A stretch of DNA of 64,000 nucleotides. Source: Spirochaetales bacterium. Lineage in GTDB: Bacteria > Spirochaetota > Spirochaetia > SZUA-6 > JAFGRV01. Shown here piece by piece: positions 8,285 to 57,217 of this stretch. A model generated the notes under the pieces. The model did not search any database. It was not told the origin of the DNA and was given only the letters and a program-made list of their open reading frames with translations. The stretch spans positions 31,340 to 95,339 of the forward strand of contig JAFGHO010000016.1 of assembly GCA_016930085.1 (NCBI GenBank), given 5' to 3'. Made by a program: the position numbers and the translations under genes. Every line of letters starts with the position of its first letter. The first letter of the stretch is position 1.

Positions 8285-8591
8285 GGTAACCCTCTCATTC
8301 TCATTGATGTAATCCGGATGTTTCGGCGGGGGCGGAAAAGATCCGGCCTTTCCGCCTTCCCCTTTCTTCCGGATTATCACCCTTTCAACTAGTATAGATG
8401 TAATAAGGAAAATTCTCCACAGGAATTTCATTGACTCATATAGTACGGGGTTATCCGATAATAGTAACACAATCTTCGATTCTTGCATTTTTTAAAAATA
8501 TTATGCATTATATCGTTAAGGCCTTTTGTTTCGTGAAAACATTGAGGCAGCGCATGCGGCAATCGATATTCGCGCACGGGGAGGTGAACTC

Positions 8592-29763: not shown

Positions 29764-30131
29764 ATCCTTCTCCCCCTCATCCCATACCCGTTCCCGAGAT
29801 TCAAAAACCTTTCTTGATAATAGTCAGACATTTCAGGTTGTAAGAGAAATGTTGTTTTTCTGGTCCGAATCACAGAACCCTCTATATTTCTCATTTTCTT
29901 CACCTGTCTGTTAAATTTACATTTTTTTTATAAAAAAAACCACTCCTTTTTTAATTTCGGTGTAAATTTTACGCAAAAAGAGGCTTTTCAAACAAGAAAA
30001 AATGTTATTTTCACTTGCCGATTTTCTACGTTCATCGACAATTTTAACCGTCTATCTCATCGTCCGGGCTTCGTGTCGCTTTTCCTTGAGGGAAGAAGAT
30101 GGTATTGTATGTTCATTCAGGTGATATATTG

Positions 30132-31661
30132 ATGAAAGCGGCAGTTGTTGTTCCCCCACTCAGAGATTTTTATATGACACGGCACCGGTTTTCCATTCTG
30201 GGAGCAAAAACCGTCACCGCGATCCTTCAAAAAAATAATATCGAGCCGGTGCTTTTTAATTTCCCGGTGATGAGAAATAAACCGGCGGTTATTCCGCTTC
30301 CCCTCGATCTATCCTACCTCGAGCGGTTTATCATTCCGAACGAAACGGGAAAAGCGAGTTTTTTTACATCGTACAAACATTTCGGACCTTCCTTTGAGAA
30401 TGCCGCACGGATCGTGGCCTCCTCCCGGCCGGACATCCTTTTTCTCTGCTGTTTTGCTTTCTGTTACGCGGGAGACCTGCTTGAGACGGCAGCGGCACTC
30501 AAGAACATCATTCCGCGTGTTCCTGTCACGGCGGGGGGAAACGGGGTTTCGGTGTATCCCCATTATTTCCTCGAACATCCCTGTATCGATTATGTACTGA
30601 CCGGTGAAGCGGAAGTCTCTCTTGCCGCATTCATACACGCCATAGAACACAAAACCGGCATGCGTCATGTTCCCAATCTCTATCGGAAAGAGGGGAACCG
30701 GATAGTCGCCCCTCCGCTTCAGGGAAAATCAAGCGGCGACGACCTCCTCTGCATTTTCAACAAAACACACGAAACTGAAAACTCACTCTTTTTTTCCACC
30801 GCGGTGACGCGCGGTTGTACGAAAAAGTGCCGGTTTTGCGTACACTACCATGAAACCACCCTCAGAACAGTCCCCTATAAAAAAATCCTGAAAGAAAGCG
30901 AGAAAGCATTCGATACGGAATGCCGCGAAAAGGAGATCGCCCTCAATTTTGAGGACGACAATCTGCTTCTCCGCTCTTCTTACTTTCTCCGTCTCCTCAG
31001 GGGCCTCGCCTCCCCGCGGAGGAAGACTTCATTTTATATCGAAAGCGGTATCGACTATACGCTGCTTACCCCTTTCCTGGTAAATACCCTTGTCGCCCAT
31101 GGCCTGTCACGGTTCAATCTCTCCCTTGCTTCGACCGATCCGGAATGCTGCGAGGCGGAAGGAAGGTCCCTTGATCTTCCCCGTTACGAAACGATTATCG
31201 GAGTGCTGAACGGACTCGATATCCCGTCCGTGACCTACTTTATCTGCGGACTTGAAAACGATACAAAGGAGTCCGTCGCGGAAAGCCTGCTTTATCTCGC
31301 GCGGCAGCCGACGGTTTGCGGAATCTCCCTTTTCTATCCGGTTCCGGGACTTCCCGGATTCGAGAATATGAACCGCTTCATGACCCGTTCCCCCGCCCTG
31401 ACGGCAGGATCGTCGGCATATCCCTGGAACGGTTCGCTTTCGACATCCACCCTCATCACCGCATTCAGGCTTAGCAGGTACATCAATGCCGCGAAAGCCC
31501 TTGTCCGCACCGATATCGAGAGGGAACTTCTTTTGAGGATTGCCGGAAAAAAACGCCTTCATACGATCGTGAACGACAAAAAGAAAAAACGGATCGTCGA
31601 AGTACCGGAAATGGATACGGAACTCGAGAACATTTTTTTCAGCAGACTGGCTACATTGTAA
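30132..31661 (+). CDS. B12-binding-domain radical SAM protein
   Basis: An N-terminal B12-binding-like region precedes the CxxxCxxC motif 'TRGCTKKCRFCVHY'. Confidence 0.55.
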   Translation: MKAAVVVPPLRDFYMTRHRFSILGAKTVTAILQKNNIEPVLFNFPVMRNKPAVIPLPLDLSYLERFIIPNETGKASFFTSYKHFGPSFENAARIVASSRPDILFLCCFAFCYAGDLLETAAALKNIIPRVPVTAGGNGVSVYPHYFLEHPCIDYVLTGEAEVSLAAFIHAIEHKTGMRHVPNLYRKEGNRIVAPPLQGKSSGDDLLCIFNKTHETENSLFFSTAVTRGCTKKCRFCVHYHETTLRTVPYKKILKESEKAFDTECREKEIALNFEDDNLLLRSSYFLRLLRGLASPRRKTSFYIESGIDYTLLTPFLVNTLVAHGLSRFNLSLASTDPECCEAEGRSLDLPRYETIIGVLNGLDIPSVTYFICGLENDTKESVAESLLYLARQPTVCGISLFYPVPGLPGFENMNRFMTRSPALTAGSSAYPWNGSLSTSTLITAFRLSRYINAAKALVRTDIERELLLRIAGKKRLHTIVNDKKKKRIVEVPEMDTELENIFFSRLATL

Positions 31662-37649: not shown

Positions 37650-39533
37650 ATGAAAAGAAACCTGTTGTTTCTCTGGATTATTCTGTTGATGTGCGCAATA
37701 CTGCACACGGGCGCGGCCCTCGATTTTATCGGGAACGTTTTTCTAAACGAGTCCGTACCGGAAGAATTCGGGTCCTACTGGAACCAGGTCACCCCTGAAA
37801 ACGGGGGAAAATGGGGCGTCGCGGAATCGAAACGCGACAGCTTTTCATGGGGATGGCTCGACGGGGCATACAATTATGCGAAAAGCAATGGCATCCCCTT
37901 CAAGGAACACACATTCGTGTGGGGTAATCAGGAACCGAGCTGGATCAGTTCACTGTCCAGCAGCGAAAAAGCGGCCGAAGTCGAAGAATGGATAAAGGCC
38001 TACGGCCAGCGGTACACGGACACGGATTATATCGAGGTCGTCAACGAACCGTTACACGATCCTCCGTCGTTCGCGGACGCCCTCGGGGGTTCGGGCTCGA
38101 GTGGATGGGACTGGGTTATCTGGAGTTTCGAGAAGGCCCGCCAGTACTGTCCGAACGCACGCCTTCTCATAAACGATTACGGCATTATCAGCGATCCGGG
38201 GGCCGCAAACAATTATCTCAATATCATCAATTTACTGAAAAACGAAAACCTCATCGACGGGATCGGTATCCAATGCCATTCGTTCAACATGGACGGTGCG
38301 TCGACAAGCACCATGAACCAGGTACTCGATTCACTGGCCGCCACCGGCCTGCCCATATACGCGTCCGAACTCGATATGACCGGAGACGACAATACGCAAT
38401 TACAGCGTTACCGGGAGAAATTTCCCGTTTTGGCGGATAATTCGTCTGTCAGGGGAATTACCTGCTGGGGATATATCGAAGGATCGATATGGGAGGAAGA
38501 GGCGTACCTTCTCAGATCGAGCGGTTCCGAACGTCCCGCCCTTACCTGGCTCAAGACCAACTATCTGCTTAAAACGGACGCCTCACCGGCCCCGGCCCAA
38601 ACGCCGATTCCCACCGATGTTCCGACCCCGACACCTGACCCCCAGAATGCGTATAATACGGTGGAAGCCGAATTGTTCGTCGACATGAACGGTATCATGG
38701 TGGAAAGCTGTGATGAAGGCGGTGAAGGGATCGGATATATCGAAGACGGCGATTATTCGGCATATCTTGTCGACTTTACCGACGGGGCCTCCCGTATTGA
38801 AGTACGGGCGGCGAGTGAAAACTCCGGCGGAACCCTCGAAGTAAGGCTCGACGGCGTGTCGGGGACACTCCTGGGCACCGTGAATATCAGCGGTACCGGC
38901 GGATGGCAGTCATGGCAGACCTTCAGCGCGGACGTCGGAACCGTCAACGGCCTCAACACGATATACATGGTCTACAAGGGAGGAAGCGGCTACCTTTACA
39001 ACATCAACTGGTTCAATTTTACCGCAGGAAGCGGCTCGACGCCGCAGCCGACGGATGTGACCACGGCGCCTCCCGGACAGGAAACGCCCGTCCCGACCGG
39101 CCCGCCTGCGGGCGGAGATTGTACCAATGTTCCCGTTTGGACCGCCGACGCCGTTTATGAAACCGCCGGTATGCGGGTTCAGTACAACGGGAATCTGTAT
39201 GAAAACAACTGGTATTCAAAGAACCAGAATCCCGAACAGAACTCCGGTGAATACCAGGTCTGGACGCTTATCGGGCCCTGCGACGGCGGCGTCACTCCTG
39301 TCCCGGACCAGACCCCGGTCCCCACGCAAGCGGGGGGGCTTATCGGGGACGTGAACGGCAATGGAACGATCGATATTGTCGATGCGTTGCTTGTCGCCCA
39401 ATACTATGTGGGACTCGAACCCGCGAATTTCACCTCAGCCAGCGCGGACGCCAACTGCAGCGGGAATATCGATATCGTCGATGCCCTGCTCATCGCGCAA
39501 TATTACGTCGGGTTGATCGATCAATTCTGTTGA
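37650..39533 (+). CDS. Secreted GH10 endo-xylanase with CBM(s) and C-terminal type-I dockerin
   Basis: A signal peptide is present. The GH10 catalytic motifs are 'IEVVNEP' (acid/base) and 'ASELDMT' (nucleophile). A beta-sandwich CBM6/35-like region and a Cys-flanked CBM5/10-like module 'CTNVPVWTADAVYETAGMRVQYNGNLYENNWYSKNQNP...C' follow. Two dockerin repeats are 'DVNGNGTIDIVDALLVAQYYVGL' and 'DANCSGNIDIVDALLIAQYYVGL'. Confidence 0.8.
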   Translation: MKRNLLFLWIILLMCAILHTGAALDFIGNVFLNESVPEEFGSYWNQVTPENGGKWGVAESKRDSFSWGWLDGAYNYAKSNGIPFKEHTFVWGNQEPSWISSLSSSEKAAEVEEWIKAYGQRYTDTDYIEVVNEPLHDPPSFADALGGSGSSGWDWVIWSFEKARQYCPNARLLINDYGIISDPGAANNYLNIINLLKNENLIDGIGIQCHSFNMDGASTSTMNQVLDSLAATGLPIYASELDMTGDDNTQLQRYREKFPVLADNSSVRGITCWGYIEGSIWEEEAYLLRSSGSERPALTWLKTNYLLKTDASPAPAQTPIPTDVPTPTPDPQNAYNTVEAELFVDMNGIMVESCDEGGEGIGYIEDGDYSAYLVDFTDGASRIEVRAASENSGGTLEVRLDGVSGTLLGTVNISGTGGWQSWQTFSADVGTVNGLNTIYMVYKGGSGYLYNINWFNFTAGSGSTPQPTDVTTAPPGQETPVPTGPPAGGDCTNVPVWTADAVYETAGMRVQYNGNLYENNWYSKNQNPEQNSGEYQVWTLIGPCDGGVTPVPDQTPVPTQAGGLIGDVNGNGTIDIVDALLVAQYYVGLEPANFTSASADANCSGNIDIVDALLIAQYYVGLIDQFC

Positions 39534-45382: not shown

Positions 45383-45529
45383 ATGTACGAATCTCCATCA
45401 ATTGAAATGCTGGGTGATTCCCAGATGAACAACGTAATGGGAGCCTTTGTTTGGGCAATAGGTCCTGTTTTTGTTGCAGTAGCAGCCGTTGTATTACTCA
45501 TTTTGTCAGTAATTGATATCACTCCGTAA
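45383..45529 (+). CDS. RiPP/bacteriocin precursor peptide (48 aa): double-glycine-type leader with a Cys-free hydrophobic core
   Basis: An AGGAGG RBS lies 7 nt upstream. The leader is MYESPSIEMLGDSQMNNVMGA and the core is FVWAIGPVFVAVAAVVLLILSVIDITP. Leader positions L-12, M-7, V-4 and G-2/A-1 fit the GG-leader consensus. Confidence 0.6.
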   Translation: MYESPSIEMLGDSQMNNVMGAFVWAIGPVFVAVAAVVLLILSVIDITP

Positions 45530-45552
45530 CTGATTATCAATTAACTGAGCCA

Positions 45553-45587
45553 CGGTCGGAATTGAGATATTATCTCTTTTCCGACCG
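45553..45587 (+). terminator. Partial terminator/attenuator hairpin between the precursor and the maturase genes
   Basis: A 9-bp stem cggtcggaa...ttccgaccg has a ~17-nt loop and is followed by a weak T-rich tract. Confidence 0.4.
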
Positions 45588-45665
45588 ATTTACATTTGTA
45601 AAAGCTCATTATCGTATAATAAAATACTGATGAAATTATAATACAAATCAGGAAAGGAGTCAACT

Positions 45666-46712
45666 ATGGCGGAATTGCAATTGCCGGTGAATACATCGAT
45701 ACAGATCAAGCATGCAGAAATCGTAAAAGGGCCCACACAAATCGCTTTCGATATCACGAACAAATGCAATTTTAGGTGCCTTCACTGTTTTAATCGAAGC
45801 AGCGAGAACGACCGGATGAACGATGAATTAACCGACAAACAGGTAAAATATTTTATAAAAGATATAATCAAAATGAAACCGTTTAATATCTGTCTGTGCG
45901 GGGGAGAACCCCTGATCAGGTTTCATTTGATATGCGACATCTCCTCGATGCTCAAGGAGAACGACATCATGGTTTCCATGGTGACGAACGGATACCTGCT
46001 GACGGAGGAAAAGGCGGAAAAATTGTTCGCTTCCGGCGTACGCCGCGTCCAGGTAAGCCTCGATGGGGCCTGTCCGGAAACCCATGAGCGATTGAGAGTG
46101 AAAAAGGGAAGTTTTAATAAAGCGATCGAGGCGATAAAAATATTCAAGACTGCGGGATTCGACGATGTCGGTGTGGCGTTCACCCCGACCAATTTCAATT
46201 GTCACGAGGCAAGCGATGTGATCGCTTTATGCCGGAACCTCGGTGTCAGGGATTTCAGGGTACAGCCATTGATGTGTATCGGCCGGGCGAAGACGAACAT
46301 GGGAAATATACTTCCTTCGAATTACCAATACCGCAACCTCGTCAAGACACTCAATGAATCAAAGACCGAATATACAGACATTAAGATCGAATGGGGCGAT
46401 CCGATCGACCATTTGATTCGCTTCCGTACCGTCACACAACACCTGAACGTCTTTCTCGTCGTTCAGGCGAACGGAGATATAGCGGCTTCCCCGTATTTGC
46501 CGATAACGATCGGCAATATTAAAAAACACTCGATTCTGAAATACTGGAAAAAGGGATTGCCGAAAGTCTGGCAGTTCGAACCGATAAAAAAAATAGCGAA
46601 TAACATCAAATGCATGTCCGATTTCTCCAAAGAACACAAGGATTTGCCGATTGTTTGGTTCGATCAGAATATTCGATACGATGTTATCGACGACAAACTT
46701 ATCAGTTCATAA
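45666..46712 (+). CDS. Radical SAM peptide-modifying enzyme (partial SPASM/twitch-like C-terminal region)
   Basis: The radical SAM motifs are 'FDITNKCNFRCLHCF' (CxxxCxxC) and 'CLCGGEPL'. 'SLDGACPETHERL' is also present. The C-terminus has only scattered Cys (NFNCHE, IALCRN, LMCIG, IKCMS), so no full seven-Cys SPASM. Confidence 0.8.
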   Translation: MAELQLPVNTSIQIKHAEIVKGPTQIAFDITNKCNFRCLHCFNRSSENDRMNDELTDKQVKYFIKDIIKMKPFNICLCGGEPLIRFHLICDISSMLKENDIMVSMVTNGYLLTEEKAEKLFASGVRRVQVSLDGACPETHERLRVKKGSFNKAIEAIKIFKTAGFDDVGVAFTPTNFNCHEASDVIALCRNLGVRDFRVQPLMCIGRAKTNMGNILPSNYQYRNLVKTLNESKTEYTDIKIEWGDPIDHLIRFRTVTQHLNVFLVVQANGDIAASPYLPITIGNIKKHSILKYWKKGLPKVWQFEPIKKIANNIKCMSDFSKEHKDLPIVWFDQNIRYDVIDDKLISS

Positions 46713-46744: not shown

Positions 46745-47653
46745 ATGAAAAAAGGAACACCGCACTTTAAAAGTGAAAATCTGCTTTACATGAGGGAGGA
46801 AAACAAAGGTTGTGTCACACTGTTATCCAAATTCCACCCCGAACTGAGAGAATTGGTGATAAACAAAACAACGAAAGAAATCATCGATTTATGCGACGGT
46901 CAAAACACGATCGAAGACATCATTTCAAAAATGAAAGCGAAATATCCGATGGTCCAGTCGGCCATCATTACAAATGACGTACACAAAATTCTCGCTAGTA
47001 CCTCCAGATTGATGTTGATTCAATGGGAACACGAGAACCCGTACCTTTTTCTGAGAGAAGAAATCATAGACGATACGTACGGATTGAGAATCGGCGTCGA
47101 AGACGATTTGTTGAAGATAAAGAAATTTATTATGGACAGCGATATTCTTACAAATGGGAACGACGTTTCTTCCTCGCATTTTTATTATAAAAATGTTTAT
47201 GTCAACACATATGAATACGACGAAGTTTTATTGCGGCAGAAAATATTCAATTTTAACGAGGAGTTCTTCTTTTTAACAAAAAACGGGGAAATAGAAGGAT
47301 TATTATCCTTTCAGCTGCCCATTCCCCCGTCAAAGGCCGCCGTATTGAAGATGTGCATTTGTGCAAAAGAATATTTCAGGGAATTGTTTCGCTATGCATC
47401 GGACAATCTCCCGCACATATCCGTTTCGCAGCTTTCGAAAATTAAATTTATTATCAGTTCGAAGGAGCCTGTTGACGACTCCCTGGTTGAATTGCTAATA
47501 TCTGAAGGATTCGGGGACGAGGGATTGTTCAGGGACGAACTGGGTTTTGATCATGATATTTCCGTCATGGGCTTGAGCTACGATCCCGTCCTTATCGATG
47601 AGATCGAAAAAAACAGGAAAGCGGCTACCGCTATCGGCGGACTGGCGCAGTAG
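46745..47653 (+). CDS. PqqD-like RiPP recognition element (RRE) fused to a ~200-aa domain of unknown function
   Basis: The N-terminal block 'VTLLSKFHPELRELVINKTTKEIIDLCDGQNTIEDIISKMKAKYP...ITNDVHKIL' matches the PqqD/RRE consensus ('ln.ta..iw.l.dG..t..ei...l...y......DV..fl'). Confidence 0.5.
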   Translation: MKKGTPHFKSENLLYMREENKGCVTLLSKFHPELRELVINKTTKEIIDLCDGQNTIEDIISKMKAKYPMVQSAIITNDVHKILASTSRLMLIQWEHENPYLFLREEIIDDTYGLRIGVEDDLLKIKKFIMDSDILTNGNDVSSSHFYYKNVYVNTYEYDEVLLRQKIFNFNEEFFFLTKNGEIEGLLSFQLPIPPSKAAVLKMCICAKEYFRELFRYASDNLPHISVSQLSKIKFIISSKEPVDDSLVELLISEGFGDEGLFRDELGFDHDISVMGLSYDPVLIDEIEKNRKAATAIGGLAQ

Positions 47654-47721: not shown

Positions 47722-48486
47722 ATGTATCGACGTTATATGTTAAACGTATCGTTTTTCGTTTTGAGTTTCTTTTTCTCGCATTGTTTCATTTTCGCGGAAC
47801 CGGCCCTGGGGAAAATCGTTTCGGATATAAAAAACAGTAAAAAGGAAATGAGCGGCAAAATCGCCGATATAACGATCATACAGGAAAGCGAAATATATTC
47901 GGAGAAGGGAACGATGCACCTCCGGTCGACGATTTACAAAAAGTCAGATAAATTCCGGGTCGAGAATTCCTGTGAGTTCGCCGGCGCAATTACCGAAGAA
48001 ACAATCATCTATGACGGCCGCGATTACTGGAAAATAGGAAGCGGCCTGAAACAGAAAATAAACAGGGACGAAATGCTGGAGAAGAACAAAACGATTGCCT
48101 TGCAGAAAAACTGGTGGGAAATAATTTCGGAGGAATCACGGCTTGAACAAGCCGACGATGAGGTAACGAACTGCTATATCATCCTGAGTGATAACAACAA
48201 TGAAACATATCGGTGCTGGGTTAACAGGGACAATCTGCTTCTCGAAAAAATCGAAATCATGTTTTCCGAAGACGACAGCATCATTATCGTCTACGGCGGT
48301 TTTGAATCAGTTGTCGACGGGCACGAAATGGCGACGAAAATCGAGCTGTACAGAAACGGTATATTGGACTCGAGAATTTCAATCAAAAAGATCGACATAA
48401 ATACCGGCGTCTCCGACGAGTTATTCGATCCGGACAGGGAAAAAAGTTTCGACCTGAATCGTATATTAAAGGATCTTTTTCAATAA
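47722..48486 (+). CDS. Secreted protein, LolA-like / unknown function
   Basis: A signal peptide 'MYRRYMLNVSFFVLSFFFSHCFIFA' is present. The length and composition suggest a beta-rich lipoprotein-carrier-like fold. The fold assignment is weak. Confidence 0.35.
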   Translation: MYRRYMLNVSFFVLSFFFSHCFIFAEPALGKIVSDIKNSKKEMSGKIADITIIQESEIYSEKGTMHLRSTIYKKSDKFRVENSCEFAGAITEETIIYDGRDYWKIGSGLKQKINRDEMLEKNKTIALQKNWWEIISEESRLEQADDEVTNCYIILSDNNNETYRCWVNRDNLLLEKIEIMFSEDDSIIIVYGGFESVVDGHEMATKIELYRNGILDSRISIKKIDINTGVSDELFDPDREKSFDLNRILKDLFQ

Positions 48487-48563: not shown

Positions 48564-49055
48564 ATGAGATTATCCAGAATAATCGGATTCCTGAACAGGA
48601 GAAAGGAAAATGAAATGACGGGGGCCGGATTTATCGCCGGAACCGTCCTGGGAATTATCATCGGGCTGTATATCTTTCTTTCGGTACTTATTCTGAAAGA
48701 GGTCACATTAAACCAGCTCGAACTCTCACTCAAGCCGTACGAACGGCTTATCAGCATGGACCCGGTTACCATTTATTATATTACCCTCATCGCGACCCCG
48801 CTTATCGTGGTCTTCATTCATATGATAATCGGTGTGGTGATCGGGATCGGTGTCAATAAACTGAAAAAACCGTCCGCCTGGAAGATCTTGCTCGGCGGGG
48901 CCGCTCTGGGGACGCTTTTCGGCTTTATCACGAGTGCCCCGGCCCCGAGGATTGTTACGTTTATAGTCTGTTTGGCGGCGTGGATTGTTTTTTCCCTTGT
49001 TTTTCTCCTGACCGTTCGTTTATCGAACAGGGAACCGGAGGATAAAACGGCCTGA
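48564..49055 (+). CDS. Small 4-TM membrane protein (candidate immunity protein)
   Basis: Four hydrophobic helices are present. The RBS is 'gagagga'. No catalytic motifs were found. Confidence 0.4.
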   Translation: MRLSRIIGFLNRRKENEMTGAGFIAGTVLGIIIGLYIFLSVLILKEVTLNQLELSLKPYERLISMDPVTIYYITLIATPLIVVFIHMIIGVVIGIGVNKLKKPSAWKILLGGAALGTLFGFITSAPAPRIVTFIVCLAAWIVFSLVFLLTVRLSNREPEDKTA

Positions 49056-49172
49056 TGCCCTGAAGGGAAAAGACAGAGAGATAATGAAAAGCGGCGGGGC
49101 GTATTTCCCGGCGACACCCGAGTCGATTGCGGTCTCCGCGGAAATGCGGATGGAAATATAACTCATGGAAAA

Positions 49173-50948
49173 ATGGAAGAACCGATGAATAAAACTATAC
49201 TGGCGTATAAGGATTTAAAACGGTTACTCGGAATTTTTACGACCTATATTAAAGGGAAAAAGGGGTTATTGTTCCTCGGCGTATTTCTGGGGATAATAAG
49301 CCGGTTATGTGCGTTATCCATCCCCTTGTTTTCGAAATTTATTATCGACACCGTCATCTTCAAAGGTTTTGACAGTTACCTCAACATAACGATACTCTCC
49401 GGGATCGTCATTCTCATTCTTCTTGCGGGGTCATCGATTCTGTCGAATTATCTTCTCTTTAAGGTAAACGGTCTGGGCGGGATCAAGTTCAAGTATTCTT
49501 TTTTCAGAAAACTGCAATATGCGCCATTTACCTTTTTTACCACTATTCAAAAAGGCGCGATCGCCCACAGAATATTGACGGACACCGAACGGATTATCGG
49601 TTTCTGGACGCAGACCGTCGCGACATTGCCGCTGATCGTTATCCTGGGCGCGGGCGGGGCGATAATGCTTCATTACAATCCCGTTCTCTCCTACTTTATC
49701 TTTAGTATTATTTTGCTTCAAATCCTTATCATCGTCGTCTTCAAGGGCCCGATCATGCGGTCCTCATTTTCAATCAAGGAAAACATGGAAAAGCTCACTT
49801 CCTATACCGTGGAGTTTTTTACAAAAATAGAACTGGTGAGAACCCATTCCACCGAAAAAAGCGAACAAAAGAAATTTCTGGGTTCAGTACGGAAATTGTT
49901 CCGGGCGGCATTCAGAAACTTCATGCTCAACAAGGGATATAACAACATCATCGCCTTTCTTTCCTATCTGTGGATCTTCGTCGTGCTCTGGTACGGCGGC
50001 ACACAGATACTGGCGGGTAACATGACAATAGGGACGCTTTCCGCGTTTTTACTCCTTGTCAATATCCTCAACACTCCCATTTTCATGCTGACCGAACTGG
50101 TCCTTTCATTTCAACAAATACGAACCAGCCTTTACCGGTACGAGGAATTCGCAAGGGTCGGAAGATATCTGCCGCCACCTTCCGGCGGCAGGCCCCTGAA
50201 ACCATACAAACCCCAGGAAGGCAGGATCGAATTGAAAGGCGTATCGTTCGGCTACAATGACCATTACGTTCTCAGAAACATCAATGAAGTCATCGAACCG
50301 AATTCCATAACTGCCCTGGTCGGCAGGACCGGCGCAGGTAAATCCACCTTTTGCCGGCTACTGATTAGACTGTTCGATCCGCAATCGGGCTCCATCTATC
50401 TGGACAACAGGGACATCAGGGAAATCAAAATACCTTCTTTAAGAAAATCGATTCATCTCTCTCTGCAGAACAACCATGTGATGAACGGCACACTCTGGGA
50501 AAATCTGACATACGGTACCGGTCATGTCGATAAAAAGGATGTCCTTCTGGCAATGAAAAAAGCGGGAATCGATTTTCATTATAAAATGCCGGCCGGATTC
50601 GACACGTTGATCGGTGTTCACGGATTGAATCTGTCAGGCGGGGAATGCCAGCGGATCGCCATAGCGAGGGCATTGCTTTTAAATCCGAAGGTTTTCATAT
50701 TCGACGAAACGACGGCATATATCGACAACAGGACGGAAGAAAAGATCAAGGATGTATTATGCGAATTGAAACGATCGGGCACCGTTATTCTCATCACGCA
50801 CCGCAGCTCGACGCTGGATGTCGTCGATAATGTCCTGTTATTCGATAATGGAACGATAACGGAATCCGCACCCTCGCATGTTCTGAAACGGGACAGGGGA
50901 AGCGAGTTTTTTAAATCTTTTTATTCAAAAGGAGGCACCCCGGAATGA
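49173..50948 (+). CDS. ABC transporter, fused permease/ATPase (peptide/bacteriocin exporter type; no fused C39)
   Basis: Six N-terminal TM helices precede Walker A 'GRTGAGKST', the signature 'LSGGECQRIAIARAL' and Walker B 'IFIFDETTAYID'. Confidence 0.85.
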   Translation: MEEPMNKTILAYKDLKRLLGIFTTYIKGKKGLLFLGVFLGIISRLCALSIPLFSKFIIDTVIFKGFDSYLNITILSGIVILILLAGSSILSNYLLFKVNGLGGIKFKYSFFRKLQYAPFTFFTTIQKGAIAHRILTDTERIIGFWTQTVATLPLIVILGAGGAIMLHYNPVLSYFIFSIILLQILIIVVFKGPIMRSSFSIKENMEKLTSYTVEFFTKIELVRTHSTEKSEQKKFLGSVRKLFRAAFRNFMLNKGYNNIIAFLSYLWIFVVLWYGGTQILAGNMTIGTLSAFLLLVNILNTPIFMLTELVLSFQQIRTSLYRYEEFARVGRYLPPPSGGRPLKPYKPQEGRIELKGVSFGYNDHYVLRNINEVIEPNSITALVGRTGAGKSTFCRLLIRLFDPQSGSIYLDNRDIREIKIPSLRKSIHLSLQNNHVMNGTLWENLTYGTGHVDKKDVLLAMKKAGIDFHYKMPAGFDTLIGVHGLNLSGGECQRIAIARALLLNPKVFIFDETTAYIDNRTEEKIKDVLCELKRSGTVILITHRSSTLDVVDNVLLFDNGTITESAPSHVLKRDRGSEFFKSFYSKGGTPE

Positions 50949-51595
50949 GATATGGGCCGTATCGGCGTCTTGCGTGCTCCCTCCTTTTTCTTGCCGTCAC
51001 ACTCAATGCCGCCTCGGGCGGCCAGACCGTCGTCACACCGTATTACCGGCTGAAGTTCGAATCGATGGACCGGCAGATATCCGAGTATGCGTGCGGCATC
51101 GCCGTGTTGACGACGTTATTCAATCATTACTTCGAGATAAACCTTTCACAACAAGAAGTCATCGATCGATATGTCGCACAAATTATGGAAGAAAGGCGAG
51201 GAATTAGTTTTTTAGACTTAAAAAAAATCGCCGCCGACCGGGGATTTACCGCAAAGGGATTTAAAATCAACCTCGCCGCCCTGCTGGAATTTTTGAAAGT
51301 CAATACCGTGCCGCTTATCATTCATCTGAATGTCAGGTACGGCGCGGAGAAGGTCGGTCACTTCTGCCTGTTGCTTGGTGAAACGGACGGTTATTTCATT
51401 ATCCAGGACCCGGCATACGGCAATTGCGTTTATACGAAAAGCCAGTTGCTCGATAAATGGAGCGGCAATATCCTCGTTATCGTTCCGCCGGAAAACGACA
51501 AGACGACCGTTGAACGCAGCCGGGAGAATATGGAAAAAGTCATCGAACGGGGAATAGAACGAATACAAAGGATGTTATATTATGAATCATACTAA
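50945..51595 (+). CDS. Standalone C39-like cysteine peptidase (double-glycine leader peptidase type)
   Basis: A signal/anchor is present. The catalytic Cys lies in 'SEYACGIAVLTTLFNHY'. The His is in 'VGHFCLLLG' and the Asp in 'IIQDPAYG'. It overlaps the ABC stop by 4 nt. Confidence 0.6.
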   Translation: MRYGPYRRLACSLLFLAVTLNAASGGQTVVTPYYRLKFESMDRQISEYACGIAVLTTLFNHYFEINLSQQEVIDRYVAQIMEERRGISFLDLKKIAADRGFTAKGFKINLAALLEFLKVNTVPLIIHLNVRYGAEKVGHFCLLLGETDGYFIIQDPAYGNCVYTKSQLLDKWSGNILVIVPPENDKTTVERSRENMEKVIERGIERIQRMLYYESY

Positions 51596-52493
51596 AAACC
51601 CTCTCTTCATCATACTTTGCGCGTCTATTTCGCTCTGTACCGCAAACGATATACACGCGCAATCGGAGAATTCATTATTCAAATTCGGTCTGGAAAAAGC
51701 TTTGGTCCTTTCGGATTCGCTCCATTACAGAAGCGCGACGTCAACGGATGTACAGGAACGGACGATCACAAACACGTTTCAGGCGGGCTATTTCTTTACC
51801 GATGCCTTGTCTCTGTTTCTTACCGTTCCTTTTTCATGCGCTATCTATTCGATTAAAAACATCAATAAAGAAGCAGCCTATGAAACCCAGGCGTTCCTTC
51901 GACTTGAAAACAGCAGCGCGGCCCTTCATTATAAACTCGATTTTTCCCGTATGACCCTCAAAGTCATAGCGGGCCTTGAAATTCCGTCGATGGCCGCCGT
52001 CTGTGACTATTCATCGATCGACAATCCGGGCGACGTTCTCATATCATTCGATTCCGAGTATTCCGATGCCGCACTCGATGATCTCAGAATGTTGACATTG
52101 CTTGCCGGTGAGACATGCTGTTTCACCATAGACCCCGTCATATTGTTCGTATCCCTGAATATTTCATACCCCCTTTGGCGGGAGAAGGATACCGAAGCCA
52201 TCTACACGACGTTCAAGAGCCAGTTGATTCAATCATTGTATTTCATCGTCAACGACTCGATCAGTCTTTTTTACGATATCGGCATCATGCTATACAAGGG
52301 AGAAAATGCCGCCATGATTGAAACCTATGTTGTAAACGGCGGATGCAATATATTGATCTCCCCGACGACGGAAATCGGATTAAATGTAATGACCGCTTTC
52401 AGCGGAAACACGGCCTTCCCGGGTCTCGGCGTCACGCTGACAAAAATAATCAAGGCGGAAGGAAGCGACGCCGGTATTCCTGAAAGCCGTTAA
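51582..52493 (+). CDS. Secreted hypothetical protein
   Basis: A signal peptide 'MNHTKNPLFIILCASISLCTANDIHA' is present. It overlaps the upstream gene by 14 nt. Beta-rich, no motifs. Confidence 0.35.
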   Translation: MNHTKNPLFIILCASISLCTANDIHAQSENSLFKFGLEKALVLSDSLHYRSATSTDVQERTITNTFQAGYFFTDALSLFLTVPFSCAIYSIKNINKEAAYETQAFLRLENSSAALHYKLDFSRMTLKVIAGLEIPSMAAVCDYSSIDNPGDVLISFDSEYSDAALDDLRMLTLLAGETCCFTIDPVILFVSLNISYPLWREKDTEAIYTTFKSQLIQSLYFIVNDSISLFYDIGIMLYKGENAAMIETYVVNGGCNILISPTTEIGLNVMTAFSGNTAFPGLGVTLTKIIKAEGSDAGIPESR

Positions 52494-52556
52494 CCGTCCG
52501 AAGTCCAGGCCGGCGGCGGACGGCCGTTTCCGGAACCGGTTGTCGTGAGAGGGAGT

Positions 52557-53411
52557 ATGAATAAAAAAATCATCCTCTATATTCTCGTCAATTGCATACT
52601 CATCGGAATAGTGGCGGCCGTTTCCGTTATCCTCCATACCGAAATCCGTTATTTCGCGGCGCTTTATATGTTTTTCCCGTTCATTGCGACACTCGTCGCC
52701 GCCGTAAAATACCGGATACCGGCAGCCGACCTGGGATTGAAAATAAGCATCGGTCCGTGGTACGCGGCGGCGTGGATACTCCCCTTTTTTCTCGCCGTTC
52801 TCTCGATCCTCATCAGTCTGATGATGGGACCCGGCATGTCGTTTTCCCCCGGCATGGAAGGACTCGAACGTTTCGGCATCGCCCCCGATGCATTGCCGTC
52901 AAACGGGGGGCTTTCCGTTTGCGGTTGGATCGGCCGTATTTTCCTTGCGTTTGCCGGGGGAATCACCGTCAACGCGATATTCGCGCTCGGAGAGGAAATC
53001 GGATGGAGGGGGCTTCTCTACAAGGAATTGCGCGGCCTCGGTTTCTGGAAATCGTCGCTTGCCGCGGGACTCCTCTGGGGCGTCTGGCACGCGCCGGTCA
53101 TTCTTTCCGGCTACAATTACCCGAACCACCCCGAAATCGGTGTTTTCATGATGACCGCATTCTGCATTCTGCTTTCCCCCCTCATGCAGTTCTTGCGGGA
53201 AAAAACGGGTTCCGTCATACCCCCCGCCGTTTTTCACGGCACTATCAACGCCTTTGCGGGATATACCGTCATATTGATCAAAGGCGGAAACGACTTGCTG
53301 ACCGGCATGACCGGACTGAGCGGGATGATCGTTTTCCTGCTTATGGACGGCCTTTTGTTCGTTTATATGCGGACAGGGAAAGCGGATGGAGAGGGCAACC
53401 GGGAAGTTTGA
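52557..53411 (+). CDS. CPBP-family (CAAX/Abi) intramembrane metalloprotease, bacteriocin-immunity-like
   Basis: Multiple TM helices are present. Motif 1 is 'FALGEEIGWRGLLY' (EExxxR), with 'FWKSSLAAGLLWGVWH' and 'VFHGTINAF' (His motif). Confidence 0.7.
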   Translation: MNKKIILYILVNCILIGIVAAVSVILHTEIRYFAALYMFFPFIATLVAAVKYRIPAADLGLKISIGPWYAAAWILPFFLAVLSILISLMMGPGMSFSPGMEGLERFGIAPDALPSNGGLSVCGWIGRIFLAFAGGITVNAIFALGEEIGWRGLLYKELRGLGFWKSSLAAGLLWGVWHAPVILSGYNYPNHPEIGVFMMTAFCILLSPLMQFLREKTGSVIPPAVFHGTINAFAGYTVILIKGGNDLLTGMTGLSGMIVFLLMDGLLFVYMRTGKADGEGNREV

Positions 53412-53794: not shown

Positions 53795-53832
53795 CTTACA
53801 AACCGCCTCCAAAGGAGGCGGTTTGCTTTTGT
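53795..53832 (+). terminator. Strong GC hairpin terminator in the intergenic region after the RiPP operon
   Basis: An 11-12-bp stem caaaccgcctcc-aaa-ggaggcggtttg is followed by CTTTTGTT. Confidence 0.55.
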
Positions 53833-53883: not shown

Positions 53884-54327
53884 TTACAGAAGCACCACAC
53901 CCGGAAAAATCAGATGGATAACCGCGACCGACATACCGGTTATCCCTATCAGTACATGGTACTTCTTGATGGTCGATCTTATTTTTCCGGTATCTTGTTT
54001 AACAATCTCCCCTTCCACTTCTTTATCCTTTTTTGTAAACACGGCGAGCAGCAGGCTTCCGCCTATTGCACAACCCGTCAGTGCGGGGAGCAGGTCTTCC
54101 AGAATAAAAATCCCTCCCGGTTTGATAAACACGAAAAACTGAAGAATCCCGACAGCCAGTGCCGTGATCCCTAATACGGTTTGTATACCCTTGTTGACCA
54201 AAATTCTCCTTATCGGATTAAGCAGCTTAATATCGGTTTCTATATTTCTGAACATGAGAGCCAATCCCCCCAGGAATAGCGTTAGAATGGAAATAAAATA
54301 TAATTGCAGCATGTTTGACTCCTCCAC
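53884..54327 (-). CDS. Hypothetical 4-TM membrane protein
   Basis: Hydrophobic helices throughout. No motifs. Confidence 0.4.
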   Translation of the reverse strand: MEESNMLQLYFISILTLFLGGLALMFRNIETDIKLLNPIRRILVNKGIQTVLGITALAVGILQFFVFIKPGGIFILEDLLPALTGCAIGGSLLLAVFTKKDKEVEGEIVKQDTGKIRSTIKKYHVLIGITGMSVAVIHLIFPGVVLL

Positions 54328-54538: not shown

Positions 54539-55249
54539 ATGCCGTATAGTATTTTAATTGTGGATGATGATAAAGATTTCAGAGTCGAGTTCCGTGATAT
54601 ACTGGAAGAAGAATATGATGTATATGAAGCAGCAAGCGGAGAAAAGGCTATTGAAATCATAAAAAAACCGAATATTGTCGATCTCGCCATTCTGGATGTT
54701 AAAATGCCGGGAATACAGGGAACAGAGGTTTTAAAACAATTAAAGCAACTGGTACCGGACTTGATAATCATAATTGTTACCGGTTATGGTTCAAAGGATG
54801 TCATAATTGAATCCTTAAGAAGGCATGCCGATGATTTTCTGGAAAAACCTTTGAAAATAGAAACGGCGCTGCAAAGAATCAAACAGCTTTTATACAACAA
54901 ACAATGTGAAGTAAAAGGCGTCATTGAAAAATTAAAGCATTTTATCGAAAAAAATTTTCACAAGAAAATAAGTCTAAAGGATGCTTCAAACGTTGTCTGT
55001 TTGAGTCCCAAATATATCTCAAAAATATTTAAAGACGAGGTCGGGATTGGATTCAATGAATATAAACTCAGGTTAAAAATGGAGAGGGCAAAAGAATTAC
55101 TGGGTTTGCATACGTACAATATCAATGAGATTGCCGGTAAAATAGGATATCTGAATATCGAATCCTTTGCAAGGATATTTAAACACCTGACAGGTGTTAC
55201 TCCCTCTGAATATAGACAGCTTTTATTTCATGGAGAAAAACATGAATAA
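54539..55249 (+). CDS. Response regulator with AraC-type HTH output
   Basis: The receiver is 'ILIVDDDKDFRVEF...LAILDVKMPGIQG'. The C-terminal AraC HTH is 'LKDASNVVCLSPKYISKIFKDEVG ... IAGKIGYLNIESFARIFKHLTGVTPSEYR'. Confidence 0.8.
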   Translation: MPYSILIVDDDKDFRVEFRDILEEEYDVYEAASGEKAIEIIKKPNIVDLAILDVKMPGIQGTEVLKQLKQLVPDLIIIIVTGYGSKDVIIESLRRHADDFLEKPLKIETALQRIKQLLYNKQCEVKGVIEKLKHFIEKNFHKKISLKDASNVVCLSPKYISKIFKDEVGIGFNEYKLRLKMERAKELLGLHTYNINEIAGKIGYLNIESFARIFKHLTGVTPSEYRQLLFHGEKHE

Positions 55250-56840
55250 ATTGTTAAAAACCATATTTAGTAAAAACCGGTATCATCCCGACGAATGTGA
55301 TGTGATATTCAATGCTTTTACCGATCCCGTCATTGTCTATAATGCTTTAGGATGTATTATAAAAGCAAACAAGGCAGCAGAAGATTTTTTACAATTCAAT
55401 CCGATAGGATTACATACCATCGGACTTGCCGAAATTCCCGCATCCGGTTTATCGACCGGGAAACCGGATGCGGTCGAGACTCTTTTATCAAAGGCTTTAA
55501 AAGGAGAAATCGGCAAAGATGTATCGTGTCAATTTACGGATAAAAACGGAAATAAAAGGTTTTGCAGCTGTTCAGCCGCGCCAATCCTCGATCGTACCGT
55601 TGTAGCCGGAATTATCCTTGTTTGGCATGACATTACAGAAATAACAGAAAAAGAAAAACAATTGGAAATAAACAATAAAAAGCTGGAAAACCTGGTTAGC
55701 GAAATAAATGAAAAGCAAAAAGTATCGGATAAACAGATAATAAACGATAAGAAAGAAATTGATACAAAAGATTCACAGATAATGGTTTCAAATAAACTGC
55801 TGGAAATAATATTTTCCAATACTCACTTTCTGATTGCTTACTTATCCACGGACTTTACTTTTATCCAGGTGAATGATGCTTATGCAAGGGCATTTAATCG
55901 GTCGCCTGATTTTTTTGCGGGAAAAAATCATTTTGATTTATTTCCCAACGAAGAAAACAAGGCTGTCTTCTCTCACGTTGTAAAATCGGGAGTTTCCTAT
56001 ATAACATATGTAAAGCCGTTTTTTCATCCCGACAAATCGGAATCCGATGCTACCTATTGGGATTGGAGTCTTCAGCCTATAAAAAACAATAATAAAGTTG
56101 AAGGAATCATTTTAGTCCTCATCGATGTGACCAGAAGGAAAAAAGCGGAAGAAGATTTATTTAATGCAAAAAGATTATCGGATATCGGAACACTGGCGGC
56201 GACGGTGGCCCATGAACTCCGCAATCCCCTTGCGGTCATTCAGGCAGCTATTTATAATATCAAGAGAAAAAGTCGGAATAGCGATATTGAGAAACATATA
56301 GAAAATATCAACGCAAAAGTCGAAGAGAGTGAACAGATTATCAATAATCTGCTTGGTTATTCGAAGTTTAAAATTCCTCAAAAGACGGACGTTTCAATTT
56401 ATAATTTTTTAAATGATCTGTTTGATGACATCCAGGGCAAAATGACTAAAGACACTATTATCATCAACAGAAAATACGAATCCCTAAAAGATACGATTAT
56501 TCATATCGATCCCGTCCAAATTCGTGAAGTACTCAATAATATAGTGAATAATGCATATCAAGCCATACCGCAGGTTAACGGCCGTATTGAAATTCAGGGG
56601 AATCTCTCAGGTAACAATCGATTGAATTTATACATTACGGATAACGGAAACGGAATAGAAAATGAAGATTTGGAAAAAATATTTAATCCCTTTTTTACAA
56701 ATAAGTCCAAGGGCACGGGATTGGGGCTAACCATCTGTAAAGAGTTGATCAAACTGCATAATGGAAATATAGAAATACTTAGTCAAAAGGGAGAGGGCAC
56801 TATTGTGAGGATTTCCCTTCCTCTAAACGTGATACCATGA
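55242..56840 (+). CDS. Cytoplasmic PAS-domain sensor histidine kinase
   Basis: Two PAS-like regions and a coiled-coil precede the H-box 'ATVAHELRNPLAVI'. The N/G boxes are 'NNIVNNAYQAI' and 'DNGNGIE...GTGLGLTICKELI'. The start MNKLLKT follows a GGAGAAAAAC RBS and overlaps the upstream RR's last codons. Confidence 0.8.
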   Translation: MNKLLKTIFSKNRYHPDECDVIFNAFTDPVIVYNALGCIIKANKAAEDFLQFNPIGLHTIGLAEIPASGLSTGKPDAVETLLSKALKGEIGKDVSCQFTDKNGNKRFCSCSAAPILDRTVVAGIILVWHDITEITEKEKQLEINNKKLENLVSEINEKQKVSDKQIINDKKEIDTKDSQIMVSNKLLEIIFSNTHFLIAYLSTDFTFIQVNDAYARAFNRSPDFFAGKNHFDLFPNEENKAVFSHVVKSGVSYITYVKPFFHPDKSESDATYWDWSLQPIKNNNKVEGIILVLIDVTRRKKAEEDLFNAKRLSDIGTLAATVAHELRNPLAVIQAAIYNIKRKSRNSDIEKHIENINAKVEESEQIINNLLGYSKFKIPQKTDVSIYNFLNDLFDDIQGKMTKDTIIINRKYESLKDTIIHIDPVQIREVLNNIVNNAYQAIPQVNGRIEIQGNLSGNNRLNLYITDNGNGIENEDLEKIFNPFFTNKSKGTGLGLTICKELIKLHNGNIEILSQKGEGTIVRISLPLNVIP

Positions 56841-57217
56841 AAAAGCGCATACTGATAATCGACGACGATATTCAGCTTTGTGAAGAATTTCAGGATATTT
56901 TAGTAGCTGAAGGGTTTTGTGTAAACATAGTTCACAACGGACTTTCCGGGAAGAAAATCCTGGAAAATGAAGTATTTGATATACTCCTTTTGGATATAAA
57001 AATTCCCGGTTTATCTGGTTTTGAAATTCTGAAATGGCTAAAGGATAATCATTATCAGTTGAGAATAATTATATTAACGGGAAGGCCTTTGTACAGGGCA
57101 GGGTATATAACGGATAAGAACGACGTGGAAGAAATATTGCTGGATTATGCCGATGAAGTCATCAACAAACCATCAACCATTGAAAATATAATAAATAAAA
57201 TCAAACACTATCAATAA
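56837..57217 (+). CDS. Single-domain response regulator receiver
   Basis: 'ILIIDDDIQLCEEF...ILLLDIKIPGLSG'. It overlaps the kinase stop by 4 nt. Confidence 0.7.
   Translation: MKKRILIIDDDIQLCEEFQDILVAEGFCVNIVHNGLSGKKILENEVFDILLLDIKIPGLSGFEILKWLKDNHYQLRIIILTGRPLYRAGYITDKNDVEEILLDYADEVINKPSTIENIINKIKHYQ

Follow-up and report, generated by a model that had tools for sequence, protein, structure and literature searches.

The window analyzed here is a stretch of 64,000 nucleotides (nt) from a Spirochaetales bacterium (assembly GCA_016930085.1, contig JAFGHO010000016.1, positions 31,340 to 95,339 of the forward strand), and coordinates are given as positions within it unless a sister locus is named. 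Nine genes lie on the plus strand between positions 45383 and 53411, separated by short gaps or with overlapping open reading frames (ORFs), in the order of a 48-residue precursor peptide, a radical S-adenosylmethionine (SAM) enzyme, a PqqD-fusion protein, a LolA-like protein, a four-transmembrane (4-TM) protein, an ATP-binding cassette (ABC) exporter, a C39 protease, a 303-residue secreted protein, and a CPBP protease. An earlier reading of this DNA, made from the letters alone (the sequence-only reading), had taken positions 48564-53411 as the export and processing half of a cluster for a ribosomally synthesized peptide with post-translational modifications (RiPP), an interpretation that is supported here. 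Two genes were absent from that account, the 303-residue ORF inside the interval and the LolA-like gene just upstream of it. The interval is interpreted here, with moderate confidence, as the envelope-side half of a nine-gene operon for a radical-SAM-modified peptide.

Orthologous loci (numbered L002 onward) were reached through the radical SAM neighbor, by looking up the contigs of radical SAM relatives, and the operon recurs in more than ten independent loci in which the gene order is the same, permuted, or variant. The order of the window is repeated in L002/3 and L005/6 and is permuted in L004, and the gene set is found again in L097; in L093 these gene families are rearranged and no precursor was recovered, and variant orders occur in L007, L012, L013, L045, L094, and L098-L102. 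As the proteins of these loci share only 20-65% identity, the recurrence of the gene set is not a matter of chance. Among species-representative genomes, 256 loci with a gene for the radical SAM enzyme were found by a scan. A census of loci with hidden Markov models (HMMs) placed the radical SAM enzyme and the PqqD-fusion in nearly all loci and a peptidase-less ABC exporter in most. A scan of metagenomes with the C39 alignment retrieved 13 loci, of which 12 carry other genes of the cluster and the thirteenth (L103, 2.2 kb) has the C39 gene alone on its contig; on this basis the C39 proteins of the cluster would form a dedicated clade.

The ABC exporter (49173-50948; 591 residues, or 587 in an independent gene call that starts four codons downstream) is a half-transporter that begins with its transmembrane domain, as had been claimed, with PF00664 at residues 33-302, PF00005 at residues 367-515, and intact ATPase motifs (Walker A GRTGAGKS at 384, LSGG at 487, and Walker B VFIFDE at 507). 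No C39 domain (PF03412) was detected in this protein or in its orthologues of 541-625 residues. Most related loci possess an orthologue, with or without a C39 gene, and those that do not are mostly short contigs or represent a distant radical SAM relative. Because the orthologues are peptidase-less in C39-lacking clusters as well, there is no sign of a fused ancestor that has been split.

The separate C39 gene (50945-51595; 216 residues) overlaps the stop of the ABC gene by 4 nt (ATGA), again as described from the letters, and its product matches PF03412 with 70.7 bits (E=1.4e-19), the gathering threshold being 22 bits. The intact Cys/His/Asp triad reported for this protein withstood re-inspection against the ComA peptidase (3k8u): Gln44 corresponds to the oxyanion Gln of ComA, and Cys50, His139, and Asp155 correspond to its catalytic triad. 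The four residues are invariant in five C39 orthologues, a pattern that supports a catalytically intact protease. The protein had also been called signal-anchored, and here the signal is supported and the anchor is not. The N-terminus (MRYGPYRR, a hydrophobic stretch of about 13 residues, then AAS/GG) and those of nearly all orthologues with a complete N-terminus begin with positive charges, continue with 10-15 hydrophobic residues, and have small residues where the signal peptide is predicted to be cut. The stretch is too short for a membrane-spanning segment to register, and the N-terminus looks like a cleavable Sec signal peptide and not a full-length membrane anchor.

Comparison with curated families placed the C39 protein closest to periplasmic proteases of the systems named Fap and Fil. 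The top NCBIfam matches are FilB (68.7 bits) and FapD (64.5 bits; E=8.4e-18), while models of peptidase-containing ABC transporters (PCATs) score 31-47 bits; FapD/FilB outrank the PCAT models in five of five C39 orthologues, with FapD the best or second-best match in each. These scores are far under the equivalog cutoffs (330 bits for FapD, NF058616, and 475 bits for FilB), so the protein is a relative of FapD and FilB and not a member of either family. A word-indexed homologue search with the C39 protein returned the query alone. The best 150 relatives from an exhaustive search of 1.8 billion representative proteins are all small and stand-alone (median, 229 residues), and a hydrophobic N-terminal segment precedes the catalytic Cys in 128 of the 149 that start with Met. 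For the C39 protease FapD, export by Sec to the periplasm has been shown, and secretion through FapF, the channel in the outer membrane, requires its catalytic Cys (PMC5557850). With its stand-alone form, signal-like N-terminus, and constant partner with matches to FapF, the protein of the window appears to fit a broad FapD-type class, which comprises stand-alone C39 proteases of ~200-280 residues that have a Sec signal peptide and are encoded together with a barrel of the outer membrane. The Sec-type signal peptide, the FapD/FilB matches, the stand-alone relatives, and the peptidase-less ABC orthologues together indicate that the C39 catalytic domain most likely faces the periplasm. The C39 tail beyond the protease domain (residues ~186-216; 51500-51595) is conserved in all C39 orthologues and has an aromatic end (RMLYYESY here, YFYQNHP..F elsewhere). 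Docking on the barrel predicted from the next gene is a possible function of this tail.

That partner, a secreted, beta-strand-rich protein of 303 residues with a signal peptide (51582-52493), comes from an ORF that lies between those for C39 and CPBP and shares 14 nt with the former. Its gene is directly 3' of the C39 gene in every locus whose contig extends that far, and its ORF overlaps that of C39 in L026, in L099, and in each of the four loci for which genes were called (14-59 nt where both starts are defined); the L026 copy, divergent enough to escape the HMM, was recognized from the ORFs. A profile of 12 family members had a sole match in the Protein Data Bank (PDB), the channel FapF (5O65/5O67/5O68), at a weak E=0.0038 (positions 45-187 against FapF 58-221), and hhalign gave a probability of 78% over the same region. 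FapF folds as a 12-stranded beta-barrel that has a plug and a coiled-coil at its N-terminus. Two of the 12 members match the NCBIfam FapF model (NF058560) at 3e-4 and others weakly match porins, and the protein of the window has a faint match to FilC (E=0.036 over 35 residues, for a model with a cutoff of 630 bits). The alternating hydrophobic pattern was counted in 82 windows of the protein, compared to 42 ± 12 in shuffled sequences, and several orthologues terminate in an aromatic residue. FapF was not found when a five-sequence profile was compared with the PDB, Pfam has no match for the family, and a homologue search with the family profile returned three proteins only. The 303-residue protein is a probable outer-membrane beta-barrel distantly related to FapF, going by these profile matches, and the barrel assignment is strengthened by the adjoining partner gene, which is independently FapD-like. 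The possibility that this protein and the LolA-like protein are lipoproteins was rejected as the N-terminal Cys is not conserved among orthologues.

The precursor gene (45383-45529), with homologues in related loci, has a strong ribosome-binding site (AGGAGG) 8 nt 5' of its ATG and encodes a leader, MYESPSIEMLGDSQMNNVMGA, followed by a hydrophobic, Cys-free core of 27 residues, FVWAIGPVFVAVAAVVLLILSVIDITP; hydropathy analysis gave one hydrophobic segment, membrane-spanning in length, and the precursor is not covered by any NCBIfam model. Throughout the family the leader opens with M(x)YESPTIExxG. The YESPSIEMLG of the window is an instance of the motif YxxPxIxxxG, which resembles the lasso-leader motif YxxPxLxxxG bound by RiPP recognition element (RRE)/PqqD domains. 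All of the C39-bearing loci continue this motif with xx[M/L]xx[V/I]xG[A/G/E] and then the hydrophobic core; in the window the sequence reads ...LGDSQMNNVMGA and then FVWAIGPVFVAVAAVVLLILSVIDITP. C39 peptidases recognize a leader pattern of hydrophobic residues at -4, -7, -12, and -15 (PMC10885120). A double-glycine-type site is predicted in the window after Gly20-Ala21 (VMGA/F, the stroke marking the cut), giving a leader of 21 residues, and the residues around the site (Ala at -1, Gly at -2, Val at -4, Met at -7, Leu at -12, and Ile at -15) read as those of a double-glycine leader, in which position -2 is Gly, position -1 is small, and positions -4, -7, and -12 (and also -15) are hydrophobic. 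The alternative of an LGD cleavage site, homologous to the VGG of C39-lacking relatives, was rejected for Gly-Ala because the LG belongs to the conserved YxxPxIxxxG and because no site other than Gly-Ala agrees with the -4/-7/-12/-15 pattern.

The distribution of this site follows that of the protease. The double-glycine-type motif is present in 11/11 distinct precursors from C39-bearing loci and 0/17 from C39-lacking loci, counts uncorrected for shared ancestry, and all 11 keep Gly at -2 and hydrophobic residues at -4 and -7. On a neighbor-joining tree of the radical SAM enzymes, built without support values, the C39-bearing clusters are not confined to one branch but fall in at least three places that C39-lacking clusters separate. 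The sequence-only reading had linked the C39 protein to a GG-type leader, and the co-variation of leader motif and C39 gene supports this link of protease to precursor, as judged from the distribution of the two. In a sister locus (L009, 11981-17583; GCA_017880035.1, a 1.37-Mb contig), at least six tandem precursor genes share an identical leader, MEKYESPTIEQVGG, ahead of divergent hydrophobic cores and are interleaved with repeated bPH_5 and SdpI genes, an array that resembles a set of multiple toxins and immunities.

Three further components are encoded 5' of the interval. The LolA-like gene (47722-48486; 254 residues, with a signal peptide) is confined to loci that also have the C39 gene, and PF17131 (LolA_like) matches seven of nine orthologues (best E=4.6e-9), while PDB profile searches with the family returned nothing meaningful; the protein is proposed to be a periplasmic carrier of the hydrophobic core peptide. 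The radical SAM maturase (45666-46712; 348 residues; PF04055, E=1.5e-27; CX3CX2C) has 490 homologues at E<=1e-10, and in an alignment of 29 sequences the invariant or nearly invariant cysteines are C34/C38/C41 and C76/C78, with no SPASM-type Cys-rich tail and no conserved Cys in the C-terminal domain. The enzyme is below every curated NCBIfam cutoff, and possibilities for its chemistry include epimerization or a crosslink near the conserved C-terminal IDITP of the precursor. The family is widespread, many of the 256 loci being in Collinsella, Clostridia, Paenibacillus, and Caldisericota. In the PqqD-fusion (46745-47653; 302 residues), a PqqD/RRE domain at residues ~39-85 (PF05402 in 8/8 orthologues; best E=4.6e-9) is joined to a C-terminal domain of ~200 residues that is conserved in the 8/8 orthologues examined and has no Pfam or PDB match.

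Two predicted inner-membrane proteins complete the operon. The CPBP (Rce1/Abi-like) intramembrane protease (52545-53411; 288 residues) matches PF02517 at E=4.8e-15 (56.1 bits against a cutoff of 22.4), and the EExxxR motif that had been ascribed to it is present as EEIGWR (150-155), accompanied by WGVWH (178-182) and HGTIN (231-235), all conserved in five orthologues. The 4-TM protein (48564-49055; 163 residues), defined by hydropathy and orthologue alignments, is present as described and conserved in five further loci, with the qualification that its segments are three strong and one weaker. The CPBP and 4-TM genes always co-occur and are restricted to the sub-clade of the window plus L093. 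At the equivalent position, L026 (14223-14999) has a YhfC protease with a bPH_5 protein and L099 (6115-6876) a PrsW protease with a bPH_5 protein; L008 has PrsW/YhfC, bPH_5, and DUF1648 proteins, L009 its repeated SdpI and bPH_5 genes next to several precursors, L023 and L010 a DUF1648 protein with an ABC-2 transporter, and L029 an ABC-2-type transporter without a recognizable DUF1648. CPBP, YhfC, and PrsW are three branches of one intramembrane-protease superfamily that interchange among sister clusters, and each such gene shares its cluster with a small membrane protein (4-TM or bPH_5). The motifs of Abi/CPBP proteins are required for bacteriocin immunity. With variable, cargo-specific sets of membrane proteins at equivalent positions in the sister clusters pointing to self-protection, it is plausible by analogy that CPBP and 4-TM are immunity genes. 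Abi/CPBP proteins are recognized bacteriocin immunity factors, according to Kjos 2010 as cited in PMC8692603.

Directly 3' of the precursor stop codon is a very stable stem-loop (45553-45587, plus strand), where the fold of 45527-45620 has an energy of -29 kcal/mol (z = -6.0 against 200 shuffles), which is possibly an attenuator or mRNA stabilizer that sets the ratio of precursor to enzyme. A terminator-like hairpin 3' of the CPBP gene (53799-53825, plus strand; 12-bp stem with eight G-C pairs) is the probable end of the operon. A convergent gene (53884-54327, minus strand) for a 147-residue, four-segment membrane protein with a Pfam match to TP_0070 (PF27362) is beyond the hairpin and thus probably outside the operon. 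The two-component genes that adjoin the operon (54539-57217) encode a response regulator with an AraC domain, a PAS histidine kinase, and a second receiver. Guanine-cytosine content is 43-48% in the operon, ~36% in the two-component genes, and 53-57% in the flanks, and the contrast of the first two with the flanks suggests acquired DNA. Genes flanking the operon are housekeeping genes, Rfam and tRNA scans of the window had no matches, and no HlyD or OEP/TolC-type domains were found in the operon genes or the flanking genes scanned. Elsewhere in the window are a GH10 xylanase that also carries a CBM6 module and a dockerin domain of type I (37650-39533), in a Spirochaetales genome, and two features seemingly unrelated to the cluster, a separate B12-binding radical SAM protein (30099-31661) and a 1514-residue alpha-2-macroglobulin-like protein (3944-8488 region).

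From the gene content and its conservation, the domains and catalytic motifs, the signal-like N-termini, and the co-variation of leader motif and C39 gene, we infer a pathway of export that runs through the whole envelope and is judged reasonably likely overall. In the cytoplasm, the PqqD domain of the 302-residue protein would bind YESPSIEMLG of the precursor and the radical SAM enzyme would modify the hydrophobic core. The peptidase-less ABC half-transporter would then transport the peptide, leader included, either through the inner membrane or out of it, and the Sec-exported C39 protease would cut the 21-residue leader at V-M-G-A/F in the periplasm. Shielded by the LolA-like protein, the greasy core of 27 residues would be handed to the 303-residue FapF-like barrel, which would either release the core peptide or insert it into the outer membrane, while CPBP and 4-TM, in the inner membrane, would most likely protect the producer.

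Several points weigh against this pathway. The link to FapF is weak (E=0.004; 15% identity), and an AlphaFold model of the 303-residue protein from a three-sequence alignment has a predicted local distance difference test (pLDDT) score of 28, leaving the fold unconfirmed. The same is true of the LolA-like protein, where the single-sequence AlphaFold model has a pLDDT of 43 and the copy in the window scores 16.6 bits (E=0.0064), under the Pfam cutoff of 30. Signal peptides were judged by simple rules, and localization combines this rule-based reading with the homology to FapD, a protease for which the 2017 Fap study reported the substrate as unresolved (PMC5557850). Position -1 is Glu in 6/11 C39-linked precursors, unusual for C39 sites, so the exact cut position is one that we infer. 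The association of motif and C39 gene is further qualified by the shared ancestry of the precursors, by some ‘C39-lacking’ contigs being short, and by the lack of support values on the neighbor-joining tree. Finally, that the product is a membrane-active toxin, as the sequence-only reading argued, is a supposition.

Three alternatives, each of them improbable, concern separate parts of the pathway. It is doubtful that the C39 protease cuts a component of the machinery, for example the 303-residue barrel or the LolA-like protein, and so opens or activates an outer-membrane route instead of processing the precursor. The study that left the FapD target unresolved also carries the suggestion that FapD cleaves FapE or FapF (PMC5557850); the C39 and 303-residue proteins are always co-encoded, usually from overlapping ORFs, and the Glu at -1 in six of the leaders is atypical of a C39 site. 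Against this, the leader extension with its hydrophobic -4/-7/-12/-15 positions and invariant Gly occurs in all 11 precursors that accompany a C39 gene and in none of the 17 that do not, and tracks the C39 gene over separate branches of the radical SAM tree.

It is likewise unlikely that CPBP and 4-TM serve maturation and not immunity, with the protease trimming the membrane-embedded peptide, for example at the C-terminal IDITP or in the leader. The model for this role is the CPBP protease MroQ, which processes AgrD. The active-site motifs of the CPBP protein are fully conserved, related intramembrane proteases (YhfC and PrsW) substitute for it in other clusters, and the protein weakly matches the core of myxosortase (E=0.0016). 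Moreover, among diderm clusters with a recovered precursor, CPBP and 4-TM are found only with IDITP-type cores (window, L002, L004, and L005/L097). Firmicutes with IDITP-type precursors (L020, L023, and L029), however, are without a neighboring gene for CPBP, YhfC, or PrsW, L023 having instead its DUF1648 gene and ABC-2-type transporter and L029 its ABC-2-type transporter, and as many family members (such as L009 and L010) are without any such protease, it is dispensable for maturation. The recognized role of Abi/CPBP proteins in bacteriocin immunity (Kjos 2010, as cited in PMC8692603) also favors protection of the producer.

The third alternative concerns the fate of the cargo. It has a small chance of being correct that the membrane-helix-like, radical-SAM-modified peptide is delivered to the outer membrane or surface of the producer itself, where it would be membrane-embedded or fibril-forming like the Fap amyloids and not a diffusible toxin, by way of an unrecognized envelope-spanning route in diderms. 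If this were true, the module would be the first to show clearly a natural substrate and a recognition motif of FapD-class proteases. On the favored pathway, too, it would offer these proteases a tractable substrate.

Least probable of all, and not supported here, is the view, in line with the unfused C39 peptidase of the sequence-only reading, that the C39 protein is the peptidase of a PCAT, expressed separately, anchored in the inner membrane with a cytoplasmic catalytic domain, and docked on the ABC protein to cut before transport: its gene follows the ABC gene with a 4-nt overlap, its fold and active-site residues are common to the domains of ComA, LahT, and PCAT1, and the precursor has a double-glycine-type site, but the positive N-terminus and short hydrophobic stretch predict an exported domain, the FapD/FilB scores (64-69 bits) exceed those of the PCAT models (31-47 bits), 0/150 of the nearest relatives are PCAT-sized, orthologous ABC proteins never have a C39 domain, and the tightest gene coupling of the C39 gene is to the secreted 303-residue protein.

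Against known systems, the pathway favored here, with cleavage in the periplasm, shares individual parts with several and the arrangement of none. PCAT and AMS (maturation and secretion by ABC transporters) exporters (ComA, PCAT1, LahT, and CvaB) have the same Gln/Cys/His/Asp site in the C39 domain, a leader in which -2 is Gly and the -4/-7/-12 positions are hydrophobic, and the ABC fold. They are defined by a C39 domain fused to the N-terminus of the ABC protein, whereas PF00664 begins at residue 33 here, no family member has a peptidase domain in its ABC protein, and the protease is separate with a signal peptide, so that cleavage would come after transport and not before it. The cluster also has no HlyD or TolC partner, and the HlyD-type and TolC-type partners of type I secretion were not found among the operon and flanking genes scanned. 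In Gram-negative bacteria, the removal of double-glycine leaders has been described as cytoplasmic and carried out by the exporter’s own C39 domain, and in a review from 2023 on proteases that act on RiPP leaders, C39 is listed solely in the form of PCAT domains (PMC10885120); if the favored pathway is correct, leader cleavage can shift to the periplasm.

Radical SAM RiPP systems with RRE/PqqD domains (PQQ, mycofactocin, and sactipeptides) similarly have a PqqD domain adjoining the radical SAM enzyme, but the core is Cys-free here, there is no SPASM tail, the PqqD domain is fused to a domain of ~200 residues, and scores fall below the NCBIfam cutoffs. The cluster flags a widespread and uncharacterized family of radical SAM peptides (256 loci in representative genomes). 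Abi/CPBP immunity proteins (Kjos et al. 2010) resemble the CPBP protein in being multi-pass, in the EExxxR, FxxxH-like, and HxxxN motifs, and in the position of the gene at the end of a peptide operon; they differ in that the protein here is always paired with the novel 4-TM protein and that YhfC or PrsW takes its place in sister clusters. LolA and LolA_like proteins (PF17131, TP_0789-like) are comparable in being secreted proteins of ~250 residues, with matches in the seven orthologues noted above, but no LolCDE or LolB genes are in the cluster and the presumed cargo is a peptide and not the acyl chains of lipoproteins. Were this carrier role true, it would be a way to bring a 27-residue, membrane-helix-like peptide through the aqueous periplasm.

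The Acinetobacter Fil system, a putative pilus system by its NCBIfam naming, supplies the best match of the C39 protein (FilB) and the faint FilC match of the 303-residue protein, with scores far under the cutoffs (475 and 630 bits) and no pilin-like genes in the cluster. The Fap system of Pseudomonas differs in several respects: the C39 score is 64.5 bits against the 330-bit FapD cutoff, there are no FapA/B/C/E homologues or amyloid repeats here, the 303-residue protein is too short for the coiled-coil found at the N-terminus of FapF, and the cargo is a 48-residue radical-SAM peptide without a Sec signal that would cross the inner membrane via an ABC exporter. The literature consulted contains no description that joins a C39/FapD-type protease, a FapF-like barrel, a LolA-like carrier, and a radical SAM peptide. 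What Fap has in common with the window is that a stand-alone C39 protease, exported by Sec, is encoded together with a beta-barrel of the outer membrane, the export and the barrel being probable here; the pairing of a periplasmic C39 protease with an outer-membrane pore is known from bacterial amyloid secretion and probably undescribed for modified peptides, and, if the favored pathway is true, a Fap-type pair of protease and channel can be recruited to the export of peptide natural products.

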